From Bacteroidota bacterium (GTDB taxonomy: Bacteria; Bacteroidota; Rhodothermia; Rhodothermales; JANQRZ01), in contig JBCDKT010000003.1 of NCBI GenBank assembly GCA_038746285.1, positions 80,003 through 144,002 of the forward strand: a stretch of 64,000 nucleotides of DNA, read 5' to 3'. A program made the position numbers and the translations under genes. This document shows positions 1 through 56,510 of the stretch, piece by piece; within the stretch, counting starts at the first letter, position 1, and the number at the start of each line of letters is the position of its first letter. The notes beneath the pieces are model-generated. The model was not told where the DNA came from. It saw only the letters and a program-made list of their open reading frames with translations, and did no database searches.

Positions 1-777
1 CTGCTGTCGCCCGAGTTGAGCGCCTTGTAGCCGCCGTTCGAGGTCGGCTGCTTCTGCTTCAGGATGTCGGCTTCGAGCGTCGCGCCGATGTGGTTGGCCT
101 GCCCGGTGAGGTCGGCGCTGTTCTCGTGGTTGGTGCCGTCGACGGTGAAGCCCTCGTTGCGGAGGTAGCACCACAGGACAGTCGCCATGCCGAGTTCGTG
201 GGCGCGGGCGAAGGCCTCGGAGACCTCCACGATCTGCCGGTTCGAGCCGTCGCTGCCGAAGTAGATCGTCGCCCCGACCGCGACGCAGCCCATCTCGTAC
301 GCCTGCTCCACTTGGGCAAACATGATCTGGTCGTACGTGTTGGGGTAGGTCAACAGCTCGTTGTGGTTGAGCTTGAGCAGCATCGGGATTTTGTGGGCGT
401 ATTTCCGCGCGACGGCTCCGAGCGCGCCGTAGGTCGTCGCGACGGCATTGCAGCCGCCCTCGATGGCGAGTTCGACGATCTTGGCCGGGTCGAAGTAGTC
501 CGGGTTCTTGGCGAAGCTCGCGCCGCCGGCGTGCTCGATGCCCTGGTCGACGGGGAGGATCGAGAGGTAGCCCGTCCCGCCGAGGCGGCCGTGGTCGTAC
601 ATCGCCTGGAGCGAGCGCAGCACCGGGATCGAGCGGTCAGACTCGCGCCAGACACGGTCCACGAAGTCGGGGCCGGGAAGGTAGAGCCGGTCCTTCGAGA
701 TGGCCGGGGTCGAAAAGCCGAGGAGGTCGTCGGCTTCGTCGCCGAGGAGGTCTTCGAGGTGCGCGGTGTCAGCCATG
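1..777 (-). CDS. fbaB: Class I fructose-bisphosphate aldolase (FbaB/DhnA family); C-terminal end lies beyond the window edge
   Basis: Own minus-strand translation from ATG (revcomp of cat 775-777): [97 protein letters not shown]...[11 protein letters not shown]. Missing from the ORF track only because no stop lies inside the window. ORFs 90..911(+) and 350..865(-) are shadow frames. Confidence 0.85.
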
Positions 778-840
778 ATAAATCGGGGGTGAGAAGCAGC
801 GGTGCGAGAGCGCATAAAGTACGCATTGGCCTATTCGGCG

Positions 841-899
841 GGTTAGCGCGGCGGCTGAACTTCAAGCGGAATCCGTGTGGGGGCTGTCCGAGTCGAGGG
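841..899. repeat. Diverged duplicate (relic) of the 3' end of the FAD-oxidoreductase gene; left flank of the ATPase/TOPRIM cassette
   Basis: Hand alignment of 842-892 to 2812-2860 gives about 37 of 51 columns identical with one 2-nt gap. Core is GGAATCCG(T/C)GTGGGG(G/T)CTG..CGAG. The complement of a stop codon (tta 843-845 vs cta 2813-2815) sits at the same aligned position. Confidence 0.55.
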
Positions 900-940
900 C
901 GCTATATTTAGCCGAGCGACGCACCGCACTGCCCTTAGCC

Positions 941-2113
941 ATGTCCGACTTGCTGCTCGACAGCCTGCTCATCGAGAACTTCCGTGCCTTCAAGCGGCTG
1001 GAGGTGAAGGAGCTTGGCCGGGTCAACCTGATCGTCGGGAAGAACAACGTCGGGAAGACGGCCCTGCTCGAAGCACTCTGGTTGTATGCTGCGCGAGGGG
1101 CGCAGCACGTTCTGGCTGAGGTTGTTCGGCGGCGAGACGAAGTAGCTTTTTTATCTGCGCGGCTTCGTCCTGAGGAGCCTTTTGATTGGACGCAGGCCAT
1201 TTCAAGTCTGCGTTATGGAAGGCCTTCTCCTGCTGAACTACCTGATGTCGGGCAGAACCACGATGCTTACAGCTCGATCGATGAGAGGCAACTTTTCTCC
1301 GTAGGCTCTGCCTATGCTACCTCGACTGCCGTGCATTTCACACTCGAGATGCCCAGGGTAGGATTGAGTATTCACGATCCCGCTTATCAAAAAGAGATGT
1401 GGTTCGGGGCAGTAAATCCCGAATGGTTGGCTGGTCAGAATGAGCGTTACCCTCTCGCGGGAAGCCTAGCGAAAGCACTAGGAGCGCGTCCGCCGCATTC
1501 AATGGTCCCTCACTATTTTGTGCCGTCATCAGGGCTGAGTCTCTCTAAACTGAGTCTCGCCTGGAAGGAGGTTGTGCTAGCAGGCAGAAAGGATGTGGCT
1601 CGGAGGGCAATTCGCAAGATCGACGGTAGTATAAAAGATATAGACTTTGTATCGGCTGCTGACGTATTCGATAGGGAAAGCGATAGAGATATAGAGTTGT
1701 CTCTCATTCCGATATGCCAGCGCGAGAACGAGGTCGTGCCAGTTCCGCTGAGGAGCATGGGAGAGGGTATGGATCGCCTGCTTGGACTGGGTCTTGCTAT
1801 CGTAGTAGCAGATGGAAGAAACGGGGGGATACTGCTGGTAGATGAGATCGAGAACGGACTTCACTACTCGGTGCAGCCGGACATGTGGCGGCTGGTCTTT
1901 GAGACGGCGGCAAAGCTCAACGTGCAGGTTTTCGCCACAACGCACAGCCTCGACTGCATCCGGGCGTTCCAGGCGGTGGCCGAGGAGCACCCGGAGGAGG
2001 GGCGGCTGATCAGCCTGCGGCGGAAGCAGGACGCGCCGGATGAGATCGTAGCCATCGAGTTCGACGAGCAGGGCATGGAATCCATTGTGCGCTCCCACAT
2101 CGAAGTCCGCTGA
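941..2113 (+). CDS. ABC/AAA_21-type ATPase (OLD / AbiLi / AriA-like), 390 aa
   Basis: ORF track 875..2113; preferred start is ATG 941 (MSDLLLDSLLIENFRAFKRLEV...). Walker A GKNNVGKT, signature-like SMGEGMDRLL, Walker B ILLVDEIENGLH, H-loop ATTHS. The central part is visibly less GC-rich than the flanks. Confidence 0.75.
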   Translation: MSDLLLDSLLIENFRAFKRLEVKELGRVNLIVGKNNVGKTALLEALWLYAARGAQHVLAEVVRRRDEVAFLSARLRPEEPFDWTQAISSLRYGRPSPAELPDVGQNHDAYSSIDERQLFSVGSAYATSTAVHFTLEMPRVGLSIHDPAYQKEMWFGAVNPEWLAGQNERYPLAGSLAKALGARPPHSMVPHYFVPSSGLSLSKLSLAWKEVVLAGRKDVARRAIRKIDGSIKDIDFVSAADVFDRESDRDIELSLIPICQRENEVVPVPLRSMGEGMDRLLGLGLAIVVADGRNGGILLVDEIENGLHYSVQPDMWRLVFETAAKLNVQVFATTHSLDCIRAFQAVAEEHPEEGRLISLRRKQDAPDEIVAIEFDEQGMESIVRSHIEVR

Positions 2114-2117
2114 GACG

Positions 2118-2816
2118 ATGGCGCATCGGTTCCGTCTGCTCGTGGAAGGCCAAGACGACTGGCACGTCCTGAGTAACTTGCTGAACGAGCACGGGGTCGA
2201 GGCATGGCGTGTCAGGCCGAGTAGCCGGGAAGACATCGGCGACAAGATCGCGGTCGAGGCAGCGGGAGGGGAAGAAGACGCCAAGAAGGGTGGGGTTGAT
2301 AGGCTGCTTAAGGACCTGGCATTCCAACTCCAGCAGAGCGACCAGGAGCGGGTCGGGATCGTCGTCGATGCTGACGAGAACCTTGCAGCACGGTGGCAAG
2401 CGGTATGCACTCGAATCGGACGTGCAGGCAATGTGGACCTACCGGGGGCACCCGATCCAGCCGGTACGGTCGTCACGCTGGAGCAGCCGGACCGAACGCT
2501 GGTGGTCGGCGTCTGGCTGATGCCGGACAACACAGATGACGGCATGATCGAGGACTTTCTGCGCTTCCTGGTCCCGGAAGGTGACGCTCTGCTGCCTCGT
2601 GCCGAACGCTGCCTTGAAGCCATCCCAGAGAACGAGCGACTCTTCGCGCAGGGAGACGCAGACCACACCTCGAAGGCGCTCATGCATACGTGGCTAGCGT
2701 GGCAAGACGAGCCGGGGCGACCGCTCGGGCAAGCCGTTACGCATCGCTACCTCGATGCTCAAGCGCCCCGTGCGCTGGCTTTCGTCGAGTGGGCGAAGCG
2801 CCTGTTCGGCCGCTAA
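2118..2816 (+). CDS. TOPRIM-like partner protein (DUF3226 / DUF4435 / RloB-like), 232 aa
   Basis: In-frame ATG 2118 within ORF 2085..2816, 4 nt after the ATPase stop. N-terminal FRLLVEGQDD supplies the TOPRIM Glu and GIVVDADEN the DxD motif. The exact Pfam family cannot be assigned without an HMM search. Confidence 0.6.
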   Translation: MAHRFRLLVEGQDDWHVLSNLLNEHGVEAWRVRPSSREDIGDKIAVEAAGGEEDAKKGGVDRLLKDLAFQLQQSDQERVGIVVDADENLAARWQAVCTRIGRAGNVDLPGAPDPAGTVVTLEQPDRTLVVGVWLMPDNTDDGMIEDFLRFLVPEGDALLPRAERCLEAIPENERLFAQGDADHTSKALMHTWLAWQDEPGRPLGQAVTHRYLDAQAPRALAFVEWAKRLFGR

Positions 2817-2870
2817 CGCGGCACTCGAACCTCTGGTGGAATCCGCGTGGGGTCTGCGAGGTAGTCGGGG
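2811..2870. repeat. Right-flank copy of the duplicated segment (the functional 3' end of the FAD-oxidoreductase gene)
   Basis: Partner of 841-899. It encodes the last ~17 codons (DYLADPTRIPPEVRVPR*) of the minus-strand gene 2813..3877. Confidence 0.55.
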
Positions 2871-3877
2871 AGGTGCCGAACGAGGAGGGGAACCGTGAGC
2901 AAGCCCTTCGACCCGAGTCCGCTGAACACCCACACGCGCCGATGGCCCAGCGGCCCGAGGAGCGGGAGCCGGCGCGGCGAGTGGGTGCGCGGAACGGTCA
3001 CCCGGACGCCCGCCCGTGCGCCGAGAATCGCGGCGTCGGCGAGGGCCGGGAGCATCTGCGCTGCCTTCGCCCGCAGCGCTTCGGACTGTGCCCGGTGCGG
3101 CTCAACGTCGTCGAAGGTGTGCTCGTACGAACTGCCGACGATGAGCGCGCTCCCATCCGGCACGACGTAGCCGAAGCCGGAGAGTGCGGGGAGGTCGACG
3201 AGGCCGTCGGGCCGGGCGAGGCGGATCGTCTGGCCTTTGATGCGGTGGAGCGGAAGCGCGCTGAGCGGGGAGAAATGCCGGAACCCGTCGCCCAGAGCAA
3301 GCATGAGGTGGTGAGCGTCGATCCGCTCGCCGGTGACCATCGTCACTGAGACGGCGCGCTCGGTCTCGGTCCAGCCCGTCACGCGCATGCCGGTGCGGAC
3401 CGCCGCCCCGCGCGCCTCGGCCGCCCGGAGCAGCACCGTCACCATCTCGGCGAGATCGACGGACCCACCGCCGGGAACCCACAGCGCACCGTGCGGAGCA
3501 GCGACGTCGGGGTACTTGGCGGCGAGCGTGTCGGGCGAGTGCCAGGCGGCGTGCTCCGGCAGCGCCTCGGCGCGGGTGCGGAAGTGGTGCGCCTGCGCTT
3601 CGTCGCGGGCGGGACGGAGCACGCCGGTGGCGCGGAACAGGTCGGTAGCGCCCGCGAGGGCGAGCGTCTCGTGGAGGGCAGCCAGCGCCTCCTCGAAGCG
3701 CCACGCCGGGTTCGCCCGCTGGCCCATCATCGGGTTGACGAGACCTGCCGCCGCGCCGGATGCGCCCGCCGCCGGTCGCTCGGCTTCGAGGACGGTCACC
3801 GCACCGCCGTGCTCGGCGAGCCACAGCGCCGCCGACGCCCCAGCGAGTCCTGCTCCGACGATCACGGTGCGCAGCAT
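2813..3877 (-). CDS. FAD-dependent oxidoreductase (DAO superfamily)
   Basis: ORF track 354 aa. N-terminal Rossmann dinucleotide motif VIVGAGLAGASAALWLAE. Its stop overlaps the convergent TOPRIM gene stop by 4 nt. Confidence 0.8.
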   Translation of the reverse strand: MLRTVIVGAGLAGASAALWLAEHGGAVTVLEAERPAAGASGAAAGLVNPMMGQRANPAWRFEEALAALHETLALAGATDLFRATGVLRPARDEAQAHHFRTRAEALPEHAAWHSPDTLAAKYPDVAAPHGALWVPGGGSVDLAEMVTVLLRAAEARGAAVRTGMRVTGWTETERAVSVTMVTGERIDAHHLMLALGDGFRHFSPLSALPLHRIKGQTIRLARPDGLVDLPALSGFGYVVPDGSALIVGSSYEHTFDDVEPHRAQSEALRAKAAQMLPALADAAILGARAGVRVTVPRTHSPRRLPLLGPLGHRRVWVFSGLGSKGLLTVPLLVRHLPDYLADPTRIPPEVRVPR

Positions 3878-3935
3878 ACGGCCTTTGTCAGTTGTTCGTG
3901 GATACGGTCGGCGGCAGCGGGGTACAACCGAACCT

Positions 3936-5120
3936 ATGACTGCTACCCCTCCACCTTCAACCGAGGTCGCCGTCGTCGGCGGCGGCGTGGTCGGCCTCGC
4001 CCTCGCGTGGCGGCTCGCCGAGCGGGGCCGCCGCGTGACGGTGCTGGAGCGCGAGGCTGTCGGGCGCGGGGCCTCCTACGCGGCGGCCGGGATGCTTGCG
4101 CCCGCCGCCGAGATTCAGTTCGAGGAAGCCGACCTCTACCGGCTCGGTCGGGAGAGCCTGCGCCGCTGGCCCGCCTTCGCCCGCGACCTCGAAGCCGCGA
4201 GCGGGATCGGCGTGGACTACCGCGGTGAGGGCACCCTCGTCGTCGCCGACGACCGCGACGCGGCCGAGGCGCTGCGGCGGCTCTACCGGTTCCAGCAGGA
4301 CCACGGCGTGCCCGTCGAGTGGCTGACTGGGGCCGAGGCGCGCGAAATCGAACCCATGCTCTCGCCTCGTCTCGCAGCCGCCGTCCACTCGCCCGAGGAC
4401 CACCAGGTGGACAACCGGCGGGTGCTGGAGGCCCTGCGCGTCGCCGCCGAACGCGCCGGCGTGACGGTCCGGGAGCAGACACCGGTGCGGGCCGTCGAGC
4501 CCAACGCAACGCGTCCCGCTGTCGTTACCGGCGAGGGCGAGCGCATCGAGGCGTCGGCCGTGGTGCTCGCCGCCGGGGCGTGGGTGCGCAGCATCGACGG
4601 CATCGAGCCGGCACCGCCGGTGCGCCCGGTGAAAGGGCAGATGCTGTCGCTGCAGATGGAGCGTCCGTTCGAGTTGCGCCACGTCGTGCGCGGGCCGGAC
4701 GCCTACCTCGTCCCGAAGTCCGACGGCCGCCTCGTCGTCGGCGCGACGAGCGAGGAGCAGGGGTTCGACACGGCGCTGACGGCGGGGGGGCTGTACCGCC
4801 TGCTCGAAGCGGCCGTCGAGGTCGTTCCTGGGATCGAAGAACTGAAGGTGACCGAGACGTGGGCGGGGCTGCGGCCCGCGAGCCGGGACCACGCGCCGCT
4901 GATCGGGACGGCCGCGCCGGGCGTTGTCCTCGCTGCCGGGCACTACCGGCACGGCGTCCTCCTCACGCCCGTCACAGCCGCCGAGCTCGCGCTCGACATA
5001 GACAGCGCCCTCGCGGAAACCACAGAACGCGGAGCATCCGGGTACTCTGTGCCCGAAACCTCCGAATGGCTCGCCCCGTTTGCCCCGGCCCGCTTCGACC
5101 CCGCTTTCCCCGACTCCTGA
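3936..5120 (+). CDS. thiO: Glycine oxidase ThiO
   Basis: In-frame ATG 3936 inside ORF 3333..5120. MTATPPPSTEVAVVGGGVVGLALAWRLAERGRRVTVLE..., DAO fold. First gene of a thiS-thiG-thiE-thiD operon. The upstream 200 codons of the track ORF overlap the minus-strand gene and are rejected. Confidence 0.85.
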   Translation: MTATPPPSTEVAVVGGGVVGLALAWRLAERGRRVTVLEREAVGRGASYAAAGMLAPAAEIQFEEADLYRLGRESLRRWPAFARDLEAASGIGVDYRGEGTLVVADDRDAAEALRRLYRFQQDHGVPVEWLTGAEAREIEPMLSPRLAAAVHSPEDHQVDNRRVLEALRVAAERAGVTVREQTPVRAVEPNATRPAVVTGEGERIEASAVVLAAGAWVRSIDGIEPAPPVRPVKGQMLSLQMERPFELRHVVRGPDAYLVPKSDGRLVVGATSEEQGFDTALTAGGLYRLLEAAVEVVPGIEELKVTETWAGLRPASRDHAPLIGTAAPGVVLAAGHYRHGVLLTPVTAAELALDIDSALAETTERGASGYSVPETSEWLAPFAPARFDPAFPDS

Positions 5121-5344
5121 TGTCCACTGACACCCTCATCCCGATCACCGTCAACGGCGAGGCGCGCGACGTGCCCGCCGGGCTCGCGCTGCCGGACCTG
5201 CTGCGCCACCTCGACCTCGACCCGGAGCAGCCGGGCATCGCCGTCGCCGTCGGCCAGACCGTCGTCCGCCGCGCCGTGTGGCCGGAGACGCCGGTCGAAG
5301 CCGGCGACGAAGTCGAGATCATCACCGCCACACAAGGAGGCTAG
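5120..5344 (+). CDS. thiS: Sulfur carrier protein ThiS (74 aa)
   Basis: ATG overlaps the thiO stop (TGATG). MSTDTLIPITVNGEARDVPAGLALPDLL...EIITATQGG with C-terminal GG. It is the tail of track ORF 4319..5344. Confidence 0.85.
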   Translation: MSTDTLIPITVNGEARDVPAGLALPDLLRHLDLDPEQPGIAVAVGQTVVRRAVWPETPVEAGDEVEIITATQGG

Positions 5345-5347
5345 GGC

Positions 5348-6208
5348 GTGACGAGCGACGAACGACAAGCGACGAATGGGCGTCATCCCGTAGGGGCGCG
5401 GCATGCCGCGCCCGCTGTCGCCGAGCCGGCCGAGGACCTGCTCAAGATCGGACCCCTTGCGCTGCGCTCCCGCGTGCTGGTCGGGACGAGCCGGTACCCG
5501 AGCCCGCAGGTCATGCTCGGCGCCCTCGAGGCGTCCGGCACGGAGCTCGTCACGGTCTCGATCCGCCGCGTGAACCTCGCCGACACCGACGGCGAGAGCC
5601 TCCTCGGGCTGCTCCGCGCGCGCGGCTACCACCTCCTCCCGAACACGGCGGGTTGCTACACCGCCCGCGAGGCCGTCCTCACCGCCGGGCTCGCCCGCGA
5701 GGCGCTGGAGACGGACCTCGTCAAGCTCGAAGTCATCGGCGACGACGAGACCCTCTACCCGGACGTGGAGCAGCTTCTGAAAGCGGCGAAGCAGCTCGTA
5801 GACGACGGCTTCCACGTCCTCGCCTACGCGGGCGACGACCCCATCACCTGCCGCAAGCTGGCCGACCTCGGCTGCGCCGCCGTGATGCCGCTCGCCGCGC
5901 CCATCGGCAGCGGGATGGGCCTCGTCAACCCGTACGCACTCCGCATCATCCGCGAGCTGCTGCCCGACGTGCCGCTCCTCGTCGACGCCGGGATCGGGAC
6001 GGCGAGCGATGCGGCGCGGGCGATGGAACTCGGCTACGACGGCGTCCTCCTCAACACGGCGATCTCGGGGGCCGAGCGGCCTGCGCTGATGGCTGCCGCC
6101 ATTCGCCACGCGGTCGAGGCCGGGCGGCTCGCGCACCTCGCCGGGCGGATCCCGCACCGCCTCTACGCGAAGGCTTCGTCGCCCGCCGACGGGCGGATCG
6201 GCGTGTGA
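5348..6208 (+). CDS. thiG: Thiazole synthase ThiG
   Basis: ORF track 286 aa. Conserved core ...[21 protein letters not shown]...DDETLYPD...[14 protein letters not shown] start 8 nt after AAGGAGG. About 30 N-terminal codons are atypical and contain a palindromic repeat. Confidence 0.88.
5390..5415. repeat. GTAGGGGCG-type palindromic element lying inside the thiG 5' coding region
   Basis: GTAGGGGCGCGGCATGCCGCGCCC. Positions 5394-5413 form a perfect 20-nt palindrome GGGCGCGGCA|TGCCGCGCCC. It shares the GTAGGGGCG head with 37590 and 41229. Confidence 0.7.
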
Positions 6209-6855: not shown

Positions 6856-7682
6856 CTCCCGAACCTCACCCCAAACCGCTCGCCCTCACCATTGCCGGCA
6901 GCGACTCCGGCGGCGGGGCCGGTATCCAGGCCGACATCAAGGCGATGGAGGCCAACGGCGTCTTCGCCGCGAGCGTGATCGCCGCCGTCACCGCGCAAAA
7001 CACGAAGGCCGTCACCGCCGCCTTCGACCTCCCGCTCGGCATCATCGAAGCCCAGCTCGACGCCGTCGCCGACGACTTCGACTTCGGCGCGGTCAAGACG
7101 GGCATGCTCTCCTCGGCGGCGATCATCGACCTCGTGGCGCGGAAGGTTCAGGAGTACGGCTCCGGGACGCGTCCCCTCGGCCCGCTCGTCGTGGACCCGG
7201 TGATGATCTCGAAGAGCGGCTTCGCCCTGCTGAAGCCCGACGCCGTCGAGGCGATGAAGCACCGCCTGATCCCGCTCGCCGCGCTCGTCACCCCGAACAC
7301 GCACGAGGCCGAGCGCCTGGCCGACACGGAAATCCGCACCCTCGACGACGCTGAGGCGGCCGCGCGGTCCATCGCCGCGCTCGGGGCCGGTGCCGTCCTC
7401 GTCAAAGGCGGCCACCTCGACGGTGAGGCGGACGCGGTCGACGTGCTCTTCGACGGCGCGGAGATGCACCACCTCCGCGCCGAGCGGATCGACACGCCGC
7501 ACACGCACGGGACGGGCTGCACCTACGCTTCGGCGATTGCCGCACACCTGGCGCGCGGCGCGGCGCTGACCGAGGCCGTAGAGCGGGCGAAGGCCTATGT
7601 CACCGAGGCGATCCGCCACGGCCTCCCCATCGGCGGCGGCCACGGCCCGACGAACCACTTCTTCGCCCTCGCCGAAGCCTGA
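6852..7682 (+). CDS. thiD: Hydroxymethylpyrimidine / phosphomethylpyrimidine kinase ThiD
   Basis: ORF track 276 aa. ATG overlaps the thiE stop (ATGA). [19 protein letters not shown]...TPNTHEAE...VKGGHL...HTHGTGCT. Confidence 0.9.
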
Positions 7683-7683
7683 C

Positions 7684-9528
7684 CTACTCCGGGAGGTCCA
7701 GGACGCTCCCGACCGAGTGGATCACGCCGTTCGTCGCAAACTGGTTGGCAGTGACTCCCAGTGTGCAGTCCACTAGGTTAATGCCTATTTCCTCGCCAGT
7801 GTCCGGGTCAAAGATCGGAACCTCTGTGCAGTTGAGACGGACTATGCCAGCACCGGGATAAACGCGGAGGTCCGGCCCCCCCAGCGTAGGCAGGCGGAAG
7901 AACAGAGAGTCGGGTATGGTAGGCGTGACGGTCGAGTCGATCAAGTCACGGATCTCGTAGAGGCCCGGGACGATGTGGTACTCCATGGTGCGACGCCGCG
8001 TCGAGGAGGGGAGGATCACCCCGTTGAAGGCTACGTCGGTGGGGGCAAACACGGTATAGGGACCCTCGCCGCGCGGGTCTTCGCCGCGCAGTAGGGGTGT
8101 CAGCCCCGCGCTACGCATCGTGTTGAGGAAGCTGTAGAGTGCGCCGAAGACCGCCCGCTCTTCAAGGTCGAGATCAGGGGGAAGAATGAACGGGGAGATC
8201 GAGTAGATCAGCCCGTTGCGGGTCTCGATGGGAGGGATCGTGACCTCGCCGCGCCCGCCGACGAAGACGCGCGTGCCCCCCACGTCGTCGAGGGTCTGGA
8301 CCTGGAGGCTGTAGTCGCCCAGCGTGGTGAGCGGGGTCGAGCGCATCATCAGGTCGTCGGGCTCTAGGCGGCCCGGGACGACGTGGTACTGCGCCGTGCG
8401 AAGCTGCAGGTCGGCGCGGAGTTGGAGTTCGTCTATGAACGGCTCGCCGAGCGGTTCGAGCGCGGGGTCGGTGGGGACGAAGAGGGTGAACGTCTCGTCG
8501 CTGCCGAGCGTGCCGAGCAGGCCGGCGTTGCCGAAGACGTCGTAGAAGTCCATCAGCTGGGGCTCGATCTGCAGCCGCTCGGCGAGGCTGAGGTGGCTCA
8601 GCACGACCGTGTCGAGGAGGTAGATCAGCCCGTCGATGGCCTCGACCGCCTCGATGATGACGCGCGCCTCGCCGACGAACGTCAGTCCGCCCTCGGCCCG
8701 GACCGGGAGCGGCTCCCCGTCGAGCGGTTCGAGCACGACGCCGTCTTCGAGGTCGTCTGCTTGGAGTCGGCCCGGCAGGACGTGGTGGCGGAGGATCGTG
8801 CCGAGGACGCTTCGGTTGCCGAAGCGCTCGAGCGTCTGGAGTCGCGCCGGGCCGAGGGCGTCGAAGGCGCTGTTGATCGGGACGAGGAGCGTGCGCGGCT
8901 CGCCGGAGGCCACGAGGCCGTTCAGGTCGGCCACGTCCAGGAAGTCCGCGAAGTCGCTCAGCAGGGGCGTCACGCGCAGGCGCTCGGCGAGCGTCAGGTG
9001 GTCGCGCACGAGGTCGCCCAGCAGGTGCACCACCCCGTTGCCGGCCTCGACGCTGGTCTCGGCGACGAGGCCGCCGCCGACGGTGACCGTCCGGTCCTCG
9101 TCGTCGTCTCCGTCTTCGACGCGCACCTCCAGCGGGGGGCCATCGAGCGGTTCGAGCACCTGGCCGTCCTGGAGGTCGGCCAGCAGGATCCGCCCGGGGA
9201 CGAGGTGGCGCCGCAGCAGCTTGGTCAGCACGTCCTGGTTGACGGTGCGGCCGAGGAGTCCGATCATGTCCTCGCCCAGGCCGTTCAGGGCCTCGTTGGT
9301 CGGCGCGAAGAACGTCAGGTCACCGCTGCCGGTGCGGAGCGTCGAGGCGAGGTCGAGGTCGTCGATGAGGTCTTCGAGCACCTCCAGGTCTTCCGAGACG
9401 GCCACGACCGCGAAGAGGTTGTCGCCGAGTGCTTCTGAATCCGCGTTGTCGCAGCCGGCGACGAAGAGGAGGCCCGCCGCGGCAGTGGCCAACAGGCAGA
9501 CGAGGAGCAGGCGCGAGACGGCAAACAT
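7684..9528 (-). CDS. Lipoprotein with four fasciclin (FAS1) domains
   Basis: ORF track 614 aa. Lipobox LFVAGC. Four repeats of the FAS1 pattern (TLFAPTNEAF...L..HV.PG...DG..L..L.G..L.V). Confidence 0.85.
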   Translation of the reverse strand: MFAVSRLLLVCLLATAAAGLLFVAGCDNADSEALGDNLFAVVAVSEDLEVLEDLIDDLDLASTLRTGSGDLTFFAPTNEALNGLGEDMIGLLGRTVNQDVLTKLLRRHLVPGRILLADLQDGQVLEPLDGPPLEVRVEDGDDDEDRTVTVGGGLVAETSVEAGNGVVHLLGDLVRDHLTLAERLRVTPLLSDFADFLDVADLNGLVASGEPRTLLVPINSAFDALGPARLQTLERFGNRSVLGTILRHHVLPGRLQADDLEDGVVLEPLDGEPLPVRAEGGLTFVGEARVIIEAVEAIDGLIYLLDTVVLSHLSLAERLQIEPQLMDFYDVFGNAGLLGTLGSDETFTLFVPTDPALEPLGEPFIDELQLRADLQLRTAQYHVVPGRLEPDDLMMRSTPLTTLGDYSLQVQTLDDVGGTRVFVGGRGEVTIPPIETRNGLIYSISPFILPPDLDLEERAVFGALYSFLNTMRSAGLTPLLRGEDPRGEGPYTVFAPTDVAFNGVILPSSTRRRTMEYHIVPGLYEIRDLIDSTVTPTIPDSLFFRLPTLGGPDLRVYPGAGIVRLNCTEVPIFDPDTGEEIGINLVDCTLGVTANQFATNGVIHSVGSVLDLPE

Positions 9529-12923: not shown

Positions 12924-12997
12924 GCGCCGGTAGCTCAGCTGGATAGAGCGTCGCACTACGGATGCGAAGGTCGGGGGTTCGAATCCTCCCCGGCGCG
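12924..12997 (+). tRNA. tRNA-Arg (anticodon ACG)
   Basis: GCGCCGGTAGCTCAGCTGGATAGAGCGTCGCACTACGGATGCGAAGGTCGGGGGTTCGAATCCTCCCCGGCGCG. 7-bp acceptor stem, D-loop AGCTCAGCTGGATAGAGC, anticodon loop CTACGGA, T-loop GGTTCGAATCC. CCA is not encoded. Confidence 0.92.
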
Positions 12998-14529: not shown

Positions 14530-14560
14530 CGTCTTGCTTTGTTGAGAACCTCAGGTTTCA

Positions 14561-14633
14561 GTCATCCCGGACCCCGATCCGGGATCCAGAGGATATGCTG
14601 AGCCTGTGGATCCCCGCCTGCGCGGGGATGACG
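14561..14633. repeat. Composite palindromic intergenic repeat, copy 1 (GTCATCCCGG...GGGGATGACG family)
   Basis: GTCATCCCGGACCCCGATCCGGGATCC...GGATCCCCGCCTGCGCGGGGATGACG. Two hairpins (ATCCCGG/CCGGGAT and ATCCCCGC/GCGGGGAT) plus complementary GTCATCC/GGATGAC ends. Also flanked by the 9-bp inverted repeat GCTTTGTTG (14536) / CAACAAAGC (14656). Lies between convergent genes. Confidence 0.8.
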
Positions 14634-14665
14634 GGTAAATGCGCGCAGAGTTTTCCAACAAAGCA

Positions 14666-16843: not shown

Positions 16844-17078
16844 AGCACGAGTGCGATGAATCGAGGTGTCAGGCTCCGCTGGCGTGCTCGACGACCTGGG
16901 CAAGGCGAAGGGCGTCGCTGAGCGCGGGGAGCAGAAGAGAAGAGATGCGCCGTTCAAACCCGGTGCGTACTGTTTTGTTGCATGTCTGCCCTGTGTGCTG
17001 CGCGGCAAGCCGGGCAGGCAGACGCGACGAAGACCCCAGCGCAAGGAAAAGCGCCAGGGTCTTCGTGTTGCCAATCTG

Positions 17079-17448
17079 TGGAGATGCCGGGGGTCGAACC
17101 CGGGTCCGAAACGAGCTACAGTCCAGGCGTCTACATGCGTAGTCCGCGTATTGAGAGTCTTTGCCCATGTGGCGGTGCCCACGAACAGGGCTTCCACACG
17201 AGCGCAGGCTGGTTGGGTTTCACTGCTTCGGCTCAGCCGGAGCCTACGCAGCTAGCTTATCTAAGTCGATGCCTCAGGAAAGGCCGGTAAGCGAGCCAAT
17301 CGGGAGACAGATGGAGGCTTTAAGCCGCCATCGCGTACGAGTAATCGTTCGCAGTTATCAGGTTTCTCAGCGTGGGTCACGGGCGTACTGAGAACCACCC
17401 GACACGCAGCCTGCCGCACGATCGCTCCGTCGAATCCAAAACATCCCC
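17079..17448 (-). ncRNA. ssrA: tmRNA (ssrA)
   Basis: Minus-strand 5' end GGGGATGTTTTGGATTCGACGG and 3' end GGACCCGGGTTCGACCCCCGGCATCTCCA (T-arm, acceptor with G3.U). Tag ORF GCG AAC GAT TAC TCG TAC GCG ATG GCG GCT TAA gives ANDYSYAMAA (about 17320-17352). Confidence 0.88.
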
Positions 17449-19109: not shown

Positions 19110-20030
19110 ATGGCCGACTTTGCGATTCTGCTGGCGAGCGCCGAGGGCAAGGCCCCCGGCGGCAATCCCCTCGCCCCGGACATGTTCGACTATCGGACTT
19201 CGAACACGTTCAACTACTTCTCCGACCTCAACCCTGAGCGCCGGGGCATCATCAAGGAGCTTCAGTCGGTCATCCAGGACAGCGACGAGAGAGCGCTGGA
19301 GAAACTGTTCGGTGTGAAGGGGGCCACGCTGGAAGAGGCGGTGCGCGTCAACCTTGACGTCTTCGGGAGCCCGCTGCTGGCGGCGGTGGACCGCTACAAC
19401 CCCGGCGTGATGTACGCCTCGATGGAGTTTCCTGAGTTGCCGACCGGGGCGCAGCGACGCCTGCTCGAAAACGGCGTCATCTTCTCCGGCCTCTTCGGCC
19501 TGCTCCGCCCGGACGATCTGATCCCGAACTACCGCCTCAAGATGGACGCCCGGCTACCCGAGGCCGGCAAGCTCTCCGCGTTCTGGAAGCCCATGCTGAG
19601 CCAGGCGCTCAACGACGCGCTCAAGGGCAAGTTCGTGTGGGACCTGCTCCCCGGTGCCCACCGCGACGCGTGGGACGACGACGGCTCCTACCGCGCGCTC
19701 GTCCAGGTTAAGTTCTACGACGAGAACAGCGGCGAGCGCAAGGCGGTCACGCACAACGTGAAGCAGCTTCGCGGGGCCCTCGTCAACTACATCGTCCGCG
19801 ACCCGGCCGAAAGCATCGAAGCGCTCCTCGACTGGGAAGCCCCGGGCGGGTTCGAGCTGGACGAGGACGAGACCACGTTCGACGACGAAACGAAGACGGG
19901 CACGGTGGTGATGGTCTCGCGGCCCGGCTGGGAGAAGCGCCGCGAGCAGCGCCGCGTCCGCCGCGCCGAGGAGGCCGCAGAGAAGGCCGCCGCCAAAGCC
20001 GCCCGCGAAGCCGAAGACGACGAGGAGTAG
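19110..20030 (+). CDS. yaaA: YaaA-family (UPF0246/DUF328) peroxide-stress protein with acidic/lysine-rich C-terminal tail
   Basis: In-frame ATG 19110 of ORF 19071..20030. MADFAILLASAEGK...VDRYNPGVMY...IFSGLFGLLRPDDLIPNYRLKM...AFWKP. Confidence 0.72.
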   Translation: MADFAILLASAEGKAPGGNPLAPDMFDYRTSNTFNYFSDLNPERRGIIKELQSVIQDSDERALEKLFGVKGATLEEAVRVNLDVFGSPLLAAVDRYNPGVMYASMEFPELPTGAQRRLLENGVIFSGLFGLLRPDDLIPNYRLKMDARLPEAGKLSAFWKPMLSQALNDALKGKFVWDLLPGAHRDAWDDDGSYRALVQVKFYDENSGERKAVTHNVKQLRGALVNYIVRDPAESIEALLDWEAPGGFELDEDETTFDDETKTGTVVMVSRPGWEKRREQRRVRRAEEAAEKAAAKAAREAEDDEE

Positions 20031-20093
20031 GAGAGTGGGAGGAGTGGGAGGAGTGGGAGGAGTGGGAGGAGTGGGAGGAGTGGGAGGAGTGGA
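20031..20093. repeat. 9-bp tandem repeat (GGAGTGGGA), about 6.5 copies, intergenic
   Basis: GAGAGTGGGA GGAGTGGGA x5 GGAGTGGAA, directly after the yaaA stop and about 100-160 bp upstream of udk. Confidence 0.9.
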
Positions 20094-33263: not shown

Positions 33264-34949
33264 ATGCCCGACGTCGTCTCCACTCTCGGCACTCCAGCGT
33301 CCGATCACGCGAAGTTCGACGCGCGCGCGGAGCACGCCCGCGCCCTGCTCGGCGAGCTGGAAGCGCACGCCAGCCAGGTCCGGCTCGGCGGCGGGCAGAA
33401 GCGGATCGACCGCGAGCACAGCCGGGGCAAGCTGACCGCCCGCGAGCGCATCGCCGCGCTCGTCGACGAGGGCACCGATTTTATGGAACTCGGCCTCTTC
33501 ACCGGGTGGGGGATGTACGAGGCCGAGGGCGGCTGCCCGTCCGGCGGGACGGTGATGGGGCTGGGGCGCGTCCACGGCCGCCTCTGCGTCCTCGTCGCGA
33601 ATGACGCCACCGTCAAGGCCGGGGCGTGGTTTCCGATCACGGCCAAGAAGAACCTCCGCGCCCAGGAGATCGCCATCGAGAACCGCCTGCCGATCGTCTA
33701 CCTCGTGGACTCGGCCGGCGTCTACCTCCCGATGCAGGACCAGATCTTCCCCGACAAGGAACACTTCGGGCGCATCTTCCGCAACAACGCCCGGATGTCC
33801 TCGATGGGCATCCCGCAGATCGCGGCGATCATGGGGAGCTGCGTCGCGGGCGGGGCCTACCTCCCGATCATGTCTGACGAGGCCCTCATCGTCGACGGCA
33901 CCGGGTCGGTCTTCCTCGCCGGGCCGTTCCTCGTCAAGGCCGCCATCGGCGAGACGACCGACAACGAGACGCTCGGCGGGGCGGCGACGCATTCCGAGAT
34001 CTCGGGCGTCACCGACTACAAGATGCCCGACGACGAGACCTGCCTTGCGACGATCCGCGACCTCGTCTCCCACCTCGGGGCGCGCGCCCGCGCCGGGTTC
34101 GACCGCGCCGAGGCTGTGCCGCCGGCCTTCGCCCCGGCGGAACTCTACGGCGTGATGCCCGAGAGCCGCCAGGTTCCCTACGACGTGCGCGACGTCCTCG
34201 CCCGGATCATCGACGCCGGCAGTTGGACCGAATACAAAGAGCAGTACGGCCAGACGCTCCTCTGCGGCTACGCCCGGATCGACGGGTGGAGCGTCGGCAT
34301 CGTCGCCAGCCAGCGCCTTGTGGTGATGGCGAAGCAGGGCAAGAAGGCGCACACGAACGAGATGCAGGCGGGCGGTGTGATCTACTCCGACTCCGCCGAC
34401 AAGGCCGCGCGGTTCATCATGAACTGCAACCAGAAGAAGATCCCGCTCGTGTTCCTCCAGGACGTGACCGGCTTCATGGTCGGCAACCGGAGCGAGCATG
34501 GGGGCATCATCAAGGACGGCGCGAAGATGGTCAACGCCGTCGCCAACTCCGTCGTCCCGAAGTTCACCGTCATCATCGGCAACTCGTACGGCGCGGGCAA
34601 CTACGCGCTCTGCGGCAAGGCCTACGACCCACGCCTGATCCTGGCGTGGCCGACGGCGCAGATCGCGGTGATGGGCGGCAAGCAGGCGGCGAAGACGCTG
34701 CTCCAGATCGAGATCGGCACGCGCAAGCGGAAGGGGGAGACGGTGTCTGAAGAGGAGCAGGCAGCCCTGCTCGAGGAGATGACGGCGCGCTACGAGGCCC
34801 AGACCTCGCCCTACTACGCCGCGGCCCGGCTGTGGGTGGACGAGATCATCGATCCGGCTGCGACCCGGCAGTGGCTCGCCACCGGCATCGAGATGGCCGA
34901 CCACAACCCGCACGTCCCCCGCTTCAACCCCGGCGTGCTTCAGACGTGA
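33264..34949 (+). CDS. Acyl-CoA carboxylase carboxyltransferase subunit (methylcrotonyl-/propionyl-CoA carboxylase beta-like)
   Basis: ORF track 561 aa. GGGQKRIDREHSRGKLTARERI, ANDATVKAGAW, VYLVDSAG, MGSCVAGGAY, FLQDVTGFMVG. Confidence 0.9.
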   Translation: MPDVVSTLGTPASDHAKFDARAEHARALLGELEAHASQVRLGGGQKRIDREHSRGKLTARERIAALVDEGTDFMELGLFTGWGMYEAEGGCPSGGTVMGLGRVHGRLCVLVANDATVKAGAWFPITAKKNLRAQEIAIENRLPIVYLVDSAGVYLPMQDQIFPDKEHFGRIFRNNARMSSMGIPQIAAIMGSCVAGGAYLPIMSDEALIVDGTGSVFLAGPFLVKAAIGETTDNETLGGAATHSEISGVTDYKMPDDETCLATIRDLVSHLGARARAGFDRAEAVPPAFAPAELYGVMPESRQVPYDVRDVLARIIDAGSWTEYKEQYGQTLLCGYARIDGWSVGIVASQRLVVMAKQGKKAHTNEMQAGGVIYSDSADKAARFIMNCNQKKIPLVFLQDVTGFMVGNRSEHGGIIKDGAKMVNAVANSVVPKFTVIIGNSYGAGNYALCGKAYDPRLILAWPTAQIAVMGGKQAAKTLLQIEIGTRKRKGETVSEEEQAALLEEMTARYEAQTSPYYAAARLWVDEIIDPAATRQWLATGIEMADHNPHVPRFNPGVLQT

Positions 34950-34951
34950 GG
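34873..34951 (+). repeat. 79-bp direct repeat, copy A (functional 3' end of the carboxyltransferase gene)
   Basis: GGCTCGCCACCGGCATCGAGATGGCCGACCACAACCCGCACG...CGCTTCAACCCCGGCGTGCT(T/C)CAGACGTGAGG. 73 of 79 identical to 35516-35594 by hand count. Confidence 0.85.
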
Positions 34952-35017
34952 CTGGTAGACCGAAACTAGTACGCGCCCCGGTCGGTAACCCTGGCAAGAA
35001 CTCAGACGGACCAGATT

Positions 35018-35290
35018 ATGGAGACGCAGTACGTCCTCACGCAGTACCTCGACGCGGCGATGGCAGGAGCCGAGTACGACAAGCTGGACGAAGGCTCTTT
35101 CGGCGGGCGGATCCCGGAATGCCAGGGTGTCGTGGCCTTCGGTGAGACCTTGCGCGTGTGCCAGGAAGAGCTACGCTCGACGCTCGAAGACTGGCTCCTG
35201 GTTGGGCTGAAGCTCGGCCATGCGCTGCCCATCGTCGGCGGCATCGACCTCAACGCGGACCCGACGCATGAGCAGGTGAACCCCGTGTAA
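35018..35290 (+). CDS. hicB: HicB-family (UPF0150-like) antitoxin
   Basis: ORF track 90 aa. ...EYDKLDEGSFGGRIPECQGVVAFGETLRVCQEELRSTLEDWLLVGLKLGHALP matches the HicB N-terminal domain pattern. Confidence 0.68.
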   Translation: METQYVLTQYLDAAMAGAEYDKLDEGSFGGRIPECQGVVAFGETLRVCQEELRSTLEDWLLVGLKLGHALPIVGGIDLNADPTHEQVNPV

Positions 35291-35501
35291 GCGCCGCGTC
35301 TTCGTCAAACGGCTCCGGCGGCTCGGGTTTGAGGGGCCGTTCTCGGGGACCAGGCACCAGTTCATGGTCTACGACCGGCACCGGCTCGCCATCCCGTCGA
35401 ACCAGGAGTATTCCGTTCCGCAGCTTCGGATGATGCTCCGCGAGGTAGAGACGCTGCTTGGGCGGAGGGTGCAAGCGGCAGAGTGGAACAGCCTCGCATA
35501 A
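35280..35501 (+). pseudogene. hicA: HicA/YcfA-like toxin reading frame without a canonical start codon
   Basis: Own translation of the open frame: TPCKRRVFVKRLRRLGFEGPFSGTRHQFMVYDRHRLAIPSNQEYSVPQLRMMLREVETLLGRRVQAAEWNSLA*. There is no ATG/GTG/TTG/CTG before ATG 35364, which would delete the first helix and strand. An upstream TGA sits at 35277-35279. Confidence 0.45.
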
Positions 35502-35515
35502 CCCGGTCCAACGAG

Positions 35516-35594
35516 GGCTCGCCACCGGCATCGAGATGGCCGACCACAACCCGCACGCGGAGCGCTTCAACCCCGGCGTGCTCCAGACGTGAGG
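35516..35594 (+). repeat. 79-bp direct repeat, copy B (orphan copy of the carboxyltransferase 3' end)
   Basis: Encodes ...LATGIEMADHNPHAERFNPGVLQT* in the carboxyltransferase frame, versus ...LATGIEMADHNPHVPRFNPGVLQT* in the intact gene. Confidence 0.85.
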
Positions 35595-35627
35595 AACGGC
35601 TAGGCTCCCGGTGCCGTTCGAGGCAGC

Positions 35628-35945
35628 ATGGATACGTCTGTTGCCTACCCGCACATCGAGGTCGACGAAGCCGGCATCGCGCGCGTCGGAGCAACCCGGC
35701 TAAAGGTGCTCCACCTCGTAGCCGCGCAGCGGGCCTACGGGTGGAGTCCGGCCGAACTGCACTTCCAGTACCCGTCGCTCTCGATGGCGCAGGTGCACGC
35801 GGCGCTCGGCTACTACTGGGACCACCGCGAAGCCCTAGACGCAGCGCTCGATGCAGCGCTGGAGTCGGCAGAACGGGCCCGGCCCGGCCTTAAAGAGCCA
35901 GAAGGGCTCCGCGCCCGGCTGCGTTCGCTCCGAGACGCTTCGTGA
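35628..35945 (+). CDS. DUF433 domain-containing protein (antitoxin-like)
   Basis: ORF track 105 aa. ...GIARVGATRLKVLHLVAAQRAYGWSPAELHFQYPSLSMAQVHAALGYYWDH matches the DUF433 pattern. Confidence 0.72.
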   Translation: MDTSVAYPHIEVDEAGIARVGATRLKVLHLVAAQRAYGWSPAELHFQYPSLSMAQVHAALGYYWDHREALDAALDAALESAERARPGLKEPEGLRARLRSLRDAS

Positions 35946-36200
35946 GTGTCGGGCTGCTCACCGATCACCACGTCCCACGGGCCATCGTAAACGGCCTCCG
36001 GCTTCGCGGGGTGGACGCCGGTCTCCTCCGAGAAGCGGCAGGACGTCAGCGCGCCGGACAGTCGTTCGGTGGTGTGATCTACGCATAACCCACTGCGCGT
36101 TCTCATCGGTGCGTGCGGGGCCGACTTCACGTCGGTCGCGGAGGCGACGATACCAGGGGCGCTGGACGACACCGATCTGTTCCTGCCGCTCTCGCGTTCA
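35942..36200 (+). pseudogene. DUF5615 (PIN-like) toxin remnant, frameshifted and truncated
   Basis: GTG overlaps the DUF433 stop (GTGA). The first frame gives VSVGLLTDHHVPRAIVNGLRLRGVDAGLLREAAGRQ..., ending at TAA 36086-36088 after 48 codons. A second frame continues with ...LRVLIGACGADF.... Full-length family members run about 110 aa. Confidence 0.4.
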
Positions 36201-36332
36201 CCAGCCACCTACATCCTCAGGCGCCCGTCCCGGAACGGTTTAGGCTTCCGAGTCCGTCTGACAGGGCACGACGGAGGCGGCGGGGACGTTGGTATATTTC
36301 GCGCTCTCCCCCCGACGGCATCCTCGACTCTC

Positions 36333-53941: not shown

Positions 53942-54013
53942 GTCATCCCGGCCTCCGAGCCGGGACCCACCGGCTGGCTCCGCCTGTGGGTCCCCGCCTG
54001 CGCGGGGATGACG
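53942..54013. repeat. Composite palindromic intergenic repeat, copy 2
   Basis: GTCATCCCGGCCTCCGAGCCGGGACCCACC...GGGTCCCCGCCTGCGCGGGGATGACG, in the alaS / NPP divergent intergenic region. Confidence 0.8.
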
Positions 54014-54065
54014 AGTATCGGGGGTTGGAGCTTGGAATCGCACACACTTATAAAAACCACCCCTT

Positions 54066-56381: not shown

Positions 56382-56414
56382 AACCGATGTTCCCTTCTCA
56401 CCCCCAGGAGATCA

Positions 56415-56487
56415 GTCATCCCGGCCCCCGAGCCGGGACCCACTGGCTAGCAAATCTTCTGGGTCCTCGCCTGCGCGGGGATTGACG
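56415..56487. repeat. Composite palindromic intergenic repeat, copy 3
   Basis: GTCATCCCGGCCCCCGAGCCGGGACCCACTGG...GGGTCCTCGCCTGCGCGGGGATTGACG, between the DUF305 and LVIVD genes. Confidence 0.8.
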
Positions 56488-56510
56488 AGTACCAAGACCC
56501 GAACGCCGCC

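Follow-up and report, generated by a model that had tools for sequence, protein, structure and literature searches.

Temperate phages and integrative and conjugative elements (ICEs) integrate into the 3′ ends of genes or tRNA genes by means of an attP-encoded surrogate end. Restriction-modification units reportedly undergo "insertion with long target duplication", a process said to have been described by Nobusato and colleagues in 2000. Such an insert is shorter than 20 kb, has no other mobile-element genes, is flanked by a direct repeat of more than 30 bp and corresponds to a single repeat copy in the empty genome (PMC2853133); the repeats around restriction-modification units are near-identical, in some cases overlap gene 3′ ends, and were read as a duplication of the target itself by an unknown mechanism (Furuta et al. 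2010, PMC2853133). Cis-mobilizable elements (CIMEs) retain attL and attR without integration and transfer genes, and have been described as decay products of ICEs or of integrative and mobilizable elements that are mobilised by a related resident ICE, as in the ICESt1/ICESt3 family (PMC5704250). Here we describe a locus within 64,000 nucleotides of a metagenome-assembled Bacteroidota genome (order Rhodothermales; GenBank assembly GCA_038746285.1, contig JBCDKT010000003.1, positions 80,003–144,002; hereafter the window), where two co-oriented genes (941–2113 and 2118–2816), encoding an ABC-type ATPase and a DUF3226 protein, form a 1.97-kb insert between two diverged copies of the 3′ end of an FAD-dependent oxidoreductase gene of the DAO family.

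We read this insert, with a probability of about 0.65, as a small integrative cassette without an integrase gene (902–2799 plus one repeat copy) that carries a surrogate gene end and was inserted by a single crossover. As such it differs from the described kinds of element in having no known parent element or integrase, in keeping a minimal form across deep divergence and several targets, and in the foreign origin of one of its two repeat copies. The interpretation originally drawn from the letters of the window, that of an element which entered the end of the oxidoreductase gene and left an attL/attR-like arrangement, is supported overall.

The two repeat copies are collinear and in direct orientation, with 49 of 65 columns identical between 829–892 and 2800–2860 (75%) and a weaker likeness extending up to about 901/2872. 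The original prediction had aligned 842–892 with 2812–2860 and counted about 37 identical columns of 51; these segments are indeed homologous (39 of 52 columns as measured), but the repeat had been drawn too short, since it really spans 829–901 and 2800–2872 and thereby continues past the stop into the last DUF3226 codons. Complements of stop codons occupy equivalent positions in the two copies, as had been noticed (tta at 843–845, cta at 2813–2815). Local alignment of the two 140-nt neighbourhoods gives a score of 43, which was reached by none of 2000 shuffles (mean 16.3, standard deviation 2.4, maximum 34), as the hypothesis of homology demanded. With three mismatches permitted, the core pattern GGAATCCGYGTGGGGKCTG occurs in the window solely at 868–886 and 2838–2856, against a chance expectation of 0.17, and an independent repeat search also recovers the pair as its family D7. 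When both ends of 52 window genes were scanned for a second copy within 6 kb, the end of the oxidoreductase gene (z=6.9) was second to that of the gene beside hicBA (z=40), and the scan revealed no further gene-end duplication in the window. Both copies of the window contain the sequence CGGATTCC, as do those of two relatives that carry a similar cassette, L003 and L096, and the empty sites of L006 and L008. Because an independent Logan assembly (L002) is 100% identical across 594–5683, both repeats included, the repeat structure is not an assembly artefact.

The identity of the native copy follows from comparison with relatives. On the oxidoreductase strand, the downstream half of the gene-distal copy is in frame and reads ...TRIPLEVQPPR* (the asterisk marking the stop, complement 843–845), and the gene-proximal copy ends in ...PTRIPPEVRVPR* (complement 2813–2815). 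The oxidoreductases of the closest relatives have the tails EVQPPR (P0004), DVQPPR (P0002), EVQPPV (P0005) and EVQPPG (P0008), and the 15-mer GAAGTTCAGCCGCCG of the distal copy is identical in L001 and L008; the tail in use, EVRVPR*, is of a type that more distant clades have (P0006, P0017, P0028). Over the last 25 nt before the stop, the distal copy shares 20 positions with L006 and 19 with L008, and the proximal copy 16 with L006. Because it is the distal copy that the closest relatives' empty-site ends resemble, the ancestral gene ended at about 843 and EVRVPR* was imported, in agreement with the earlier proposals that the gene had once ended there and that the cassette had brought a replacement 3′ end.

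Each copy is itself composite. In the proximal copy, the downstream half falls together with the surrogate ends of the L096 and L003 cassettes and the native end found in distant L097; the upstream half is host-like and matches L006. Conversely, the upstream half of the distal copy (about 876–901) contains frame-breaking indels and is of cassette type; its counterpart in L003 and L096 is a conserved cassette-borne sequence (27 of 30 positions identical), though the DUF3226 proteins of these two are 39% identical. As far as sequence can tell, the two copies are reciprocal host/element chimeras built around the octamer GGAATCCG, which is what a single crossover of a chromosomal gene end with a copy carried by the cassette should yield. 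In all three genomes with a cassette, the distal copies have retained their exact length and in-frame stop, though non-coding, and each has the tail type of the clade to which its host belongs (QPPR* or QAPR* for the window, RAAR* for L003).

The oxidoreductase gene is divergent from a thiO-thiS-thiG operon and has fbaB as its downstream neighbour in every relative; its orthologues in L001, L003, L006, L008 and L096 are 70–78% identical, and the window's fbaB product shares 97% of its amino acids with that of L006. Five relatives (L006, L008, L001, L097 and L103) have the empty arrangement that had been foreseen, in which the oxidoreductase stop is followed by 58–145 nt and then by fbaB. In L003 and L096, a diverged ATPase/DUF3226 cassette sits at exactly the window's site between a repeat pair of its own; L096 was found by prediction, as the imported look of the tail EVRVPH in its oxidoreductase P0010 suggested a cassette, which is indeed present. 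Exact-protein look-ups returned L002 as the only other contig of this organism and no empty site within the species.

The junctions of the three cassettes are conserved despite an identity of only 39–81% among their DUF3226 proteins. On the left, an att half is followed in all three by GCGCTATATT and then by the ATPase gene; GCGCTATATT and a GAGCGAC motif are invariant, and over about 50 nt the ATPase coding sequence does not differ even at third positions, an unusual degree of conservation. On the right, the surrogate end overlaps the DUF3226 stop tail-to-tail by 4, 4 and 11 nt, the window's overlap being 4 nt. Boxes similar to GTATATTT also precede fbaB and a gene for a VKOR-domain protein. 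A scan of 700–3000 for sigma-70 promoters and terminators gave nothing above shuffles; one "terminator" at 885–901 was rejected, as it merely overlaps the conserved TATATTT box.

In base composition the insert is foreign, given its GC content of 0.51–0.63, the lowest in the window (compared with about 0.72, and 0.70–0.75 in the flanks), and a third-position GC content (GC3) of 0.63–0.74 for the cassette genes of all three filled genomes, compared to 0.84–0.93 for host genes. For the window's own cassette, GC3 is 0.63–0.72, and the genes next to it have 0.86–0.93. The ATPase gene is moreover a mosaic, whose N- and C-terminal thirds are 82–93% identical in nucleotides among the three cassettes and whose middle is practically unalignable (8–60%). 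This hypervariable middle (about 1230–1730) has a very low GC content (GC3 0.44) and looks like a swapped specificity or sensor domain. Since the cassettes have exchanged their DUF3226 genes and ATPase middles between such similar ATPase ends, they draw on a shared, recombining pool. Between the repeats, a check of open reading frames (ORFs) against Pfam detected no recombinase gene or integrase remnant, the two ORFs having other family matches, so that the insert lacks an integrase as originally stated.

These observations suggest the following course of events. The cassette, whose cargo would be a two-gene candidate anti-phage module of the PDC-M38 type (the ATPase and DUF3226, possibly a TOPRIM-like nuclease), would carry beside this cargo a diverged copy of the final ~75 nt of a DAO-family oxidoreductase gene, acting in an attP-like manner. 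Integration would be of the Campbell type, by a single reciprocal crossover with the attB-like chromosomal gene end at or beside the octamer, probably via a circular intermediate. The gene body would then run into the cassette-borne surrogate end at 2800–2872, which keeps the enzyme intact. The native end at 829–901 would have been moved beyond the insert, next to the fbaB promoter, and be non-coding there. The cassette itself would be transcribed from its own promoter (GCGCTATATTTAG, 899–911), antisense to the oxidoreductase. Recombination could be supplied by a recombinase in trans or, in younger and more identical cases, by host homologous recombination. The arrangement shares with phages and ICEs the reciprocal attL/attR chimeras, the preservation of the target by an element-borne end, a short identical core, and flanking direct repeats that are single-copy at the five empty sites. 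It differs from them in that the cassette has no integrase of its own and no identified excisionase or arm-type structure, and consists of 2 kb with two cargo genes.

The same bracket was found around four other kinds of cassette at the related loci examined (hicBA, DUF433/DUF5615, DUF6036 and ParE). The hicBA case, already named in the original prediction, is confirmed by a repeat that is 92.4% identical over 79 nt (34873–34951 and 35516–35594). From 34873 to 36330, the order is first gene end, hicBA, second gene end, DUF433 and degraded DUF5615, the last being a pseudogene with a 32-codon deletion and a premature stop next to an intact DUF433 gene; the hicA-like gene matches HicA_toxin below cut-off (E=0.008) and has no canonical start codon that we could see. 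L094 has an empty carboxyltransferase site, and L095 contains an intact DUF433/DUF5615 cassette alone, followed by a 38-nt second gene-end copy and then by native downstream sequence. This succession indicates that the carboxyltransferase locus is a tandem array in which the older cassette would have been pushed outwards.

In L006, a DUF6036 gene (7545–8048) is bracketed by a 105-nt repeat of the fbaB 3′ end (7183–7287 and 8056–8160, 100 of 105 positions identical); all five mismatches fall within the first 45 nt, and both copies share the lineage-specific tail NHDVTVA*. Just downstream of fbaB in L097, a ParE toxin/antitoxin pair lies between 73-nt repeats (7304–7376 and 7938–8010, 92% identical) derived from the 3′ end of a xer-like gene for a 308-aa tyrosine recombinase. 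Flank-versus-flank alignment at the 48 DUF3226 loci that were complete enough (L003, the window and 46 loci of other metagenomes) identified four further bracketed cassettes, in L035, L060, L019 and L066, with scores of 56–162 against a cross-locus control of mean 20.9 and 99th percentile 33. These DUF3226/ATPase cassettes are distant ones (38–51% identity), and the repeats around them come from neighbouring genes, namely from the 3′ end of one for a BatA/VWA protein and from the 5′ ends of one for a DUF1156 methylase and of one for a putative PLD-type helicase, whose N-terminus was read from sequence and has no Pfam match. L066 has both fragments and no target gene, hence the cassette takes the fragments along when it moves. 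In L060, a run of 55 identical nt adjoins a scrambled block; the mismatches of the young pairs in L006 and L060 thus cluster in one half, which fits imported homologous segments better than fresh duplications of the target.

In a tree built without the tail, each of the three filled genomes is nested among empty ones, which implies that the cassette was gained three times, or else gained once and lost at least five times. The latter course belongs to an explanation whereby one ancient insertion duplicated its target, the host's own gene end, over a long stretch, and the two copies diverged as the cassette descended vertically and was repeatedly lost by recombination between them. The cassettes are as deeply diverged as their hosts (amino-acid identity 62–66% for the ATPase and 39–81% for DUF3226, third-position identity 37–72%), deletion between direct repeats is a plausible route of precise loss, and the process has a documented precedent in restriction-modification units (PMC2853133); the locus even has the corresponding anatomy, with its 1.97-kb insert, repeat of ~65–73 nt and single copy in empty genomes. 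Nevertheless, because one repeat copy is a foreign allele (the proximal tail, as opposed to the native distal one), this is not a true target duplication, and the cargo is a PDC-M38 or toxin-antitoxin module rather than a restriction-modification unit. An ancient insertion would also need at least five independent precise losses instead of three gains, and the cassette GC3 is still far from that of the host in all three genomes, which is unexpected after a residence predating host divergence. The supposedly neutral distal copies have kept exact length, in-frame stop and clade-specific tail type in all three, the functional proximal copy is the more divergent one, and the mismatches of young pairs are clustered instead of spread. 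Repeated acquisition is accordingly favoured on four points, namely nesting, foreign composition, retention of a distal copy with the clade's tail type, and module swapping, and a single ancient origin appears unlikely.

Equally unlikely, in our judgement, is that the cassette spreads as an allele of the oxidoreductase–fbaB interval by double-crossover homologous recombination with DNA of cassette-bearing relatives, taken up for instance by transformation (a "minimal mobile element"), the repeat being a passenger scar of an old founding event without any role in movement. The module shuffling described above, with ATPase ends 82–93% identical in nucleotides and a swapped middle and DUF3226 gene, would suit such exchange, for which the flanks are conserved enough (fbaB is 84–91% identical in nucleotides). 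Yet in all three genomes the switch between native and foreign sequence falls within the ~75-nt repeat and not in the kilobase-long flanks, where crossovers would be far likelier; the same bracket surrounds unrelated cargo at five different genes; and in L066 both flanking fragments accompany the cassette in the absence of the target gene.

Slightly less probable still is an origin of the insert as the decayed, now immobile stump of a larger integrase-bearing island, that is, a classic cis-mobilizable element formed by deletion. Attachment-like repeats without recombination genes define such elements (PMC5704250), and the cassette, which retains attL/attR-like repeats and has neither integrase nor transfer genes, fits that definition; it resembles CIMEs also in its defence or addiction cargo and in tandem arrays split by gene-end copies, here at the carboxyltransferase gene. 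Integration at gene 3′ ends with surrogate ends is typical of elements with tyrosine integrases, and L003 and L097 each have a gene for a tyrosine recombinase within 5 kb. That of L003 (11994–12708; Phage_integrase and SAM-like N-terminal domains) follows thiD at ~5 kb from the cassette, and the window and L006 hold other genes at this position. Unlike CIMEs, the cassette has no known parent element or integrase, its minimal units (0.6–2 kb) reappear just as clean in genomes that are deeply diverged, and at least five target genes are used within one bacterial order. Random deletion would hardly produce the same two-gene content and junctions in three deeply diverged genomes and four other, equally clean cassettes of 0.6–0.9 kb, and no integrase remnant is left between the repeats. 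A search for a parent element or helper was likewise negative: five matches of the att-like 17-mer GACCCGGCGCGGATTCC in viral contigs did not extend beyond ~20 nt, which is the chance level, the promoter-box pattern of the cassette had no match in viral contigs, and no integrase was evident in the low-GC gaps of the window at 11.9–13.1 and 16.5–18.7 kb. Finally, a chance likeness of the two segments in GC-rich DNA, for which one could cite their mere 75% identity and longest exact run of 8–9 nt, is refuted by the shuffles (0 of 2000), by the same bracket in L003 and L096 and by a distal copy that encodes the clade's own tail in frame.

Integration by a cassette-borne gene end is thus the preferred account, and several observations weigh against it. 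No recombinase has been identified, and no circular or excised form has been observed. Five different target genes speak against one dedicated site-specific enzyme, for which reason homology-driven integration is favoured over a single such recombinase, and it is plausible where identical blocks of 40–60 nt exist (hicBA, L006, L060). The focal copies, whose longest exact run is 8–9 nt, are a poor RecA substrate. Unless decay has altered the distal upstream half after insertion, they are better suited to a trans-acting site-specific enzyme than to RecA, and none of the mechanisms accounts comfortably for every case. Loss through recombination between the repeats could also leave empty sites with distal-like tails. 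Divergence cannot date the insertions, because synonymous sites are as saturated between cassettes as between hosts, third positions having reached saturation in the genes of both. The homology between 829–842 and 2800–2812, which runs past the pseudo-stop of the oxidoreductase and resembles the last DUF3226 codons (10 of 11 nt), is not expected from a simple single integration; nothing similar to 829–842 was found in the empty sites, and the likeness may reflect gene conversion between the copies or the relic of an earlier cassette. Lastly, defence is a putative function, assigned by membership of a candidate PADLOC family.

Table 1. Features of the oxidoreductase and carboxyltransferase loci, state of the insertion site in relatives, and repeats at distant loci (window coordinates unless a contig is named)
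Feature	Position	Strand	Basis or remark
fbaB, class I aldolase, DeoC/LacD family, 5′ part	1–776	−	Runs off window start; Pfam DeoC E=4.5e-47
Gene-distal repeat copy, attL-like	829–901	−	Displaced native oxidoreductase 3′ end; alignment statistics and match to empty-site ends of L006, L008, L001
Octamer GGAATCCG	868–875		Partner at 2838–2845; longest identical run common to both copies; probable crossover region
Cassette left end: box GCGCTATATTTAG and ATPase 5′ leader	899–940	+	Box at 899–911; likely Bacteroidota-type −7 promoter element (putative function)
ABC-type ATPase, 390 aa, AAA_15/AAA_21, PDC-M38A type	941–2113	+	Pfam; PADLOC
DUF3226 protein, 232 aa, PDC-M38B type, putative TOPRIM-like effector	2118–2816	+	Pfam DUF3226 E=1e-60; PADLOC
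Gene-proximal repeat copy, attR-like	2800–2872	−	Upstream half host type; downstream half imported surrogate 3′ end, now terminates oxidoreductase
FAD-dependent oxidoreductase, DAO family, 354 aa, target gene	2813–3877	−	Pfam DAO E=1.3e-51
Carboxyltransferase site, copy 1	34873–34951	+	3′ end of acyl-CoA carboxyltransferase gene (33264–34949), contiguous with gene
hicB (UPF0150-like, 35018–35290) and hicA-like (35289–35501) cassette	35018–35501	+	Between copies 1 and 2; UPF0150 E=3.4e-26
Carboxyltransferase site, copy 2	35516–35594	+	92% identical to copy 1; tail HAERFNPGVLQT* identical to relative P0243
Older cassette: DUF433 antitoxin-like (35628–35945) and DUF5615/PIN-like (35942–36088)	35628–36088	+	Pfam DUF433; alignment to intact L095 cassette
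Empty site, L006 (P0002)			Oxidoreductase 77–78% identity to window
Empty site, L008 (P0005)			Oxidoreductase 75% identity to window
Empty site, L001 (P0008)			Oxidoreductase 74% identity to window
Empty site, L097 (P0017)			Oxidoreductase 70% identity to window
Empty site, L103 (P0006)			Oxidoreductase 73% identity to window
Filled site, L003 (P0012)			Oxidoreductase 70% identity to window
Filled site, L096 (P0010)			Oxidoreductase 71–72% identity to window
Distant bracket repeats, L035	2498–2598/4623–4720		
Distant bracket repeats, L066	2732–2764/4620–4652		
Distant bracket repeats, L019	2705–2784/4622–4701		
Distant bracket repeats, L060	2669–2750/4799–4882		

The ATPase matches the PADLOC model PDC-M38A (PDLC04611) with E=1.4e-85, residues 6–390 covering profile positions 2–383 of 383, and the DUF3226 protein matches PDC-M38B (PDLC04624) with E=1.9e-48; as the two genes also adjoin each other on the same strand, the pair qualifies as a PDC-M38 candidate by sequence criteria, and the cassette as a candidate defence module against phages. 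No paper mentioning DUF3226 or PDC-M38 was found in the literature searched. Defence systems that combine an ATPase with a TOPRIM protein include PARIS (AriA/AriB), AbiL and the OLD family (PMC11464382, PMC9122126, PMC10568477), and the cassette resembles them as a two-gene operon in which an AAA_15/AAA_21 ABC-type ATPase is followed by a small protein with an acidic E...DxD-like pattern. Additional matches of the ATPase are to the AbiLi model (E=1.8e-49, residues 208–390) and, far more weakly than to PDC-M38A or AbiLi and in its C-terminal part only, to the AriA models (E=1.9e-25). The partner proteins differ: that of the cassette belongs to DUF3226 and not to DUF4435, as AriB does, and in PADLOC it matches neither AriB nor AbiLii, so that the ATPase has its AbiLi-like match without the corresponding AbiL partner. 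A profile search with DUF3226 did not find AriB among the sequences of the PDB, and Pfam DUF4435 is matched by 3 of 23 DUF3226 relatives (best E=0.0029) and not by the window protein. Both cassette proteins are also smaller (43 kDa for the ATPase, 26 kDa for DUF3226), and there is no significant fold match to solved TOPRIM structures. By analogy, the PDC-M38 cargo may nonetheless work like the ATPase-plus-nuclease pairs of PARIS, AbiL and OLD type.

When the insert was first called an ATPase/TOPRIM cassette, the ATPase was correctly assigned, as judged by Pfam and PADLOC; for the second gene the TOPRIM label is tentative. E10, D14 and D84 are invariant in 23 relatives (LLVEGxDD and GIVVDAD) and are located at strand ends of an AlphaFold2 model (pLDDT 79.5), a pattern that fits the Glu/DxD arrangement of TOPRIM domains but is not specific to them, and a few DUF3226 relatives give sub-threshold matches to DUF4435 and OLD-like TOPRIM models. 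Foldseek returned nothing significant for the DUF3226 fold in the PDB or BFVD, and a profile search no solved relative. The protein is possibly a TOPRIM-like nuclease. Relatives of DUF3226 (H1–H9, 23–37% identity) occur on nine plasmids, mostly small ones of Acinetobacter, and in H3 at least a gene for an ATP-binding protein is annotated alongside. No relative was detected in a collection of cultured phages, and the five found in viral contigs are merely 26–40% identical.

Defence and toxin-antitoxin modules turn over fast, and the vehicle for much of this turnover is not known. At the oxidoreductase locus, with its five empty and three filled sites, a two-gene module sits in the tail of a housekeeping gene by way of a spare tail and without a recombinase of its own, and the bracket may be a common route for small modules in Rhodothermales. 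A tentative generalisation, which we consider doubtful, is that Rhodothermales, and perhaps other phyla in view of the four distant DUF3226 loci, harbour recombinase-less toxin-antitoxin or defence micro-cassettes of 0.6–2 kb, each with a surrogate host gene end as a portable integration site. If so, micro-cassettes would insert at gene ends without damage to the gene, stack into small arrays and pass between species. The "long target duplications" around defence genes, a puzzle for 25 years, would come down to imported homologous gene ends, recasting such insertion as integration via an imported homologous segment. The conserved left end of the PDC-M38 cassette (att half, GCGCTATATT box and the ATPase gene's first 50 nt) would then serve some trans-acting activity as a functional recombination site. 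A diverged second gene-end copy 0.5–2 kb downstream could further serve as a cheap marker for such cassettes, and for new defence candidates, in metagenome-assembled genomes. Integron and tycheposon arrays (bioRxiv 10.1101/2020.12.28.424599) similarly stack small modules with toxin-antitoxin or defence cargo at one site between repeated recombination sites; here, in contrast, it is a protein-coding host gene whose end is repeated, not attC or a partial tRNA, no IntI or tycheposon recombinase is seen nearby, and the arrays so far comprise one or two cassettes. A combined literature search joining duplication, toxin-antitoxin and direct repeats found nothing.

Other features of the window are listed for completeness. 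A third candidate for a gene-end duplication, at 20022–20090, was rejected as a low-complexity tandem repeat, and so were the remaining self-BLAST pairs of the window, which are located within genes or belong to a dispersed intergenic repeat. A tmRNA gene (17076–17448, − strand) and a tRNA gene (12924–12997, + strand) lie in low-GC gaps, with no island or integrase seen adjoining them. A ~75-nt intergenic repeat, for which Rfam has no family at gathering score, is present in three copies that are 80–86% identical (14558–14637, 53942–54017 and 56412–56491). Its sequence, GTCATCCCGG...CCGGGA...CCCCGCCTGCGCGGGGATGAC, is predicted to fold into three hairpins (RNAalifold −35.7 kcal/mol) with two compensatory pairs.

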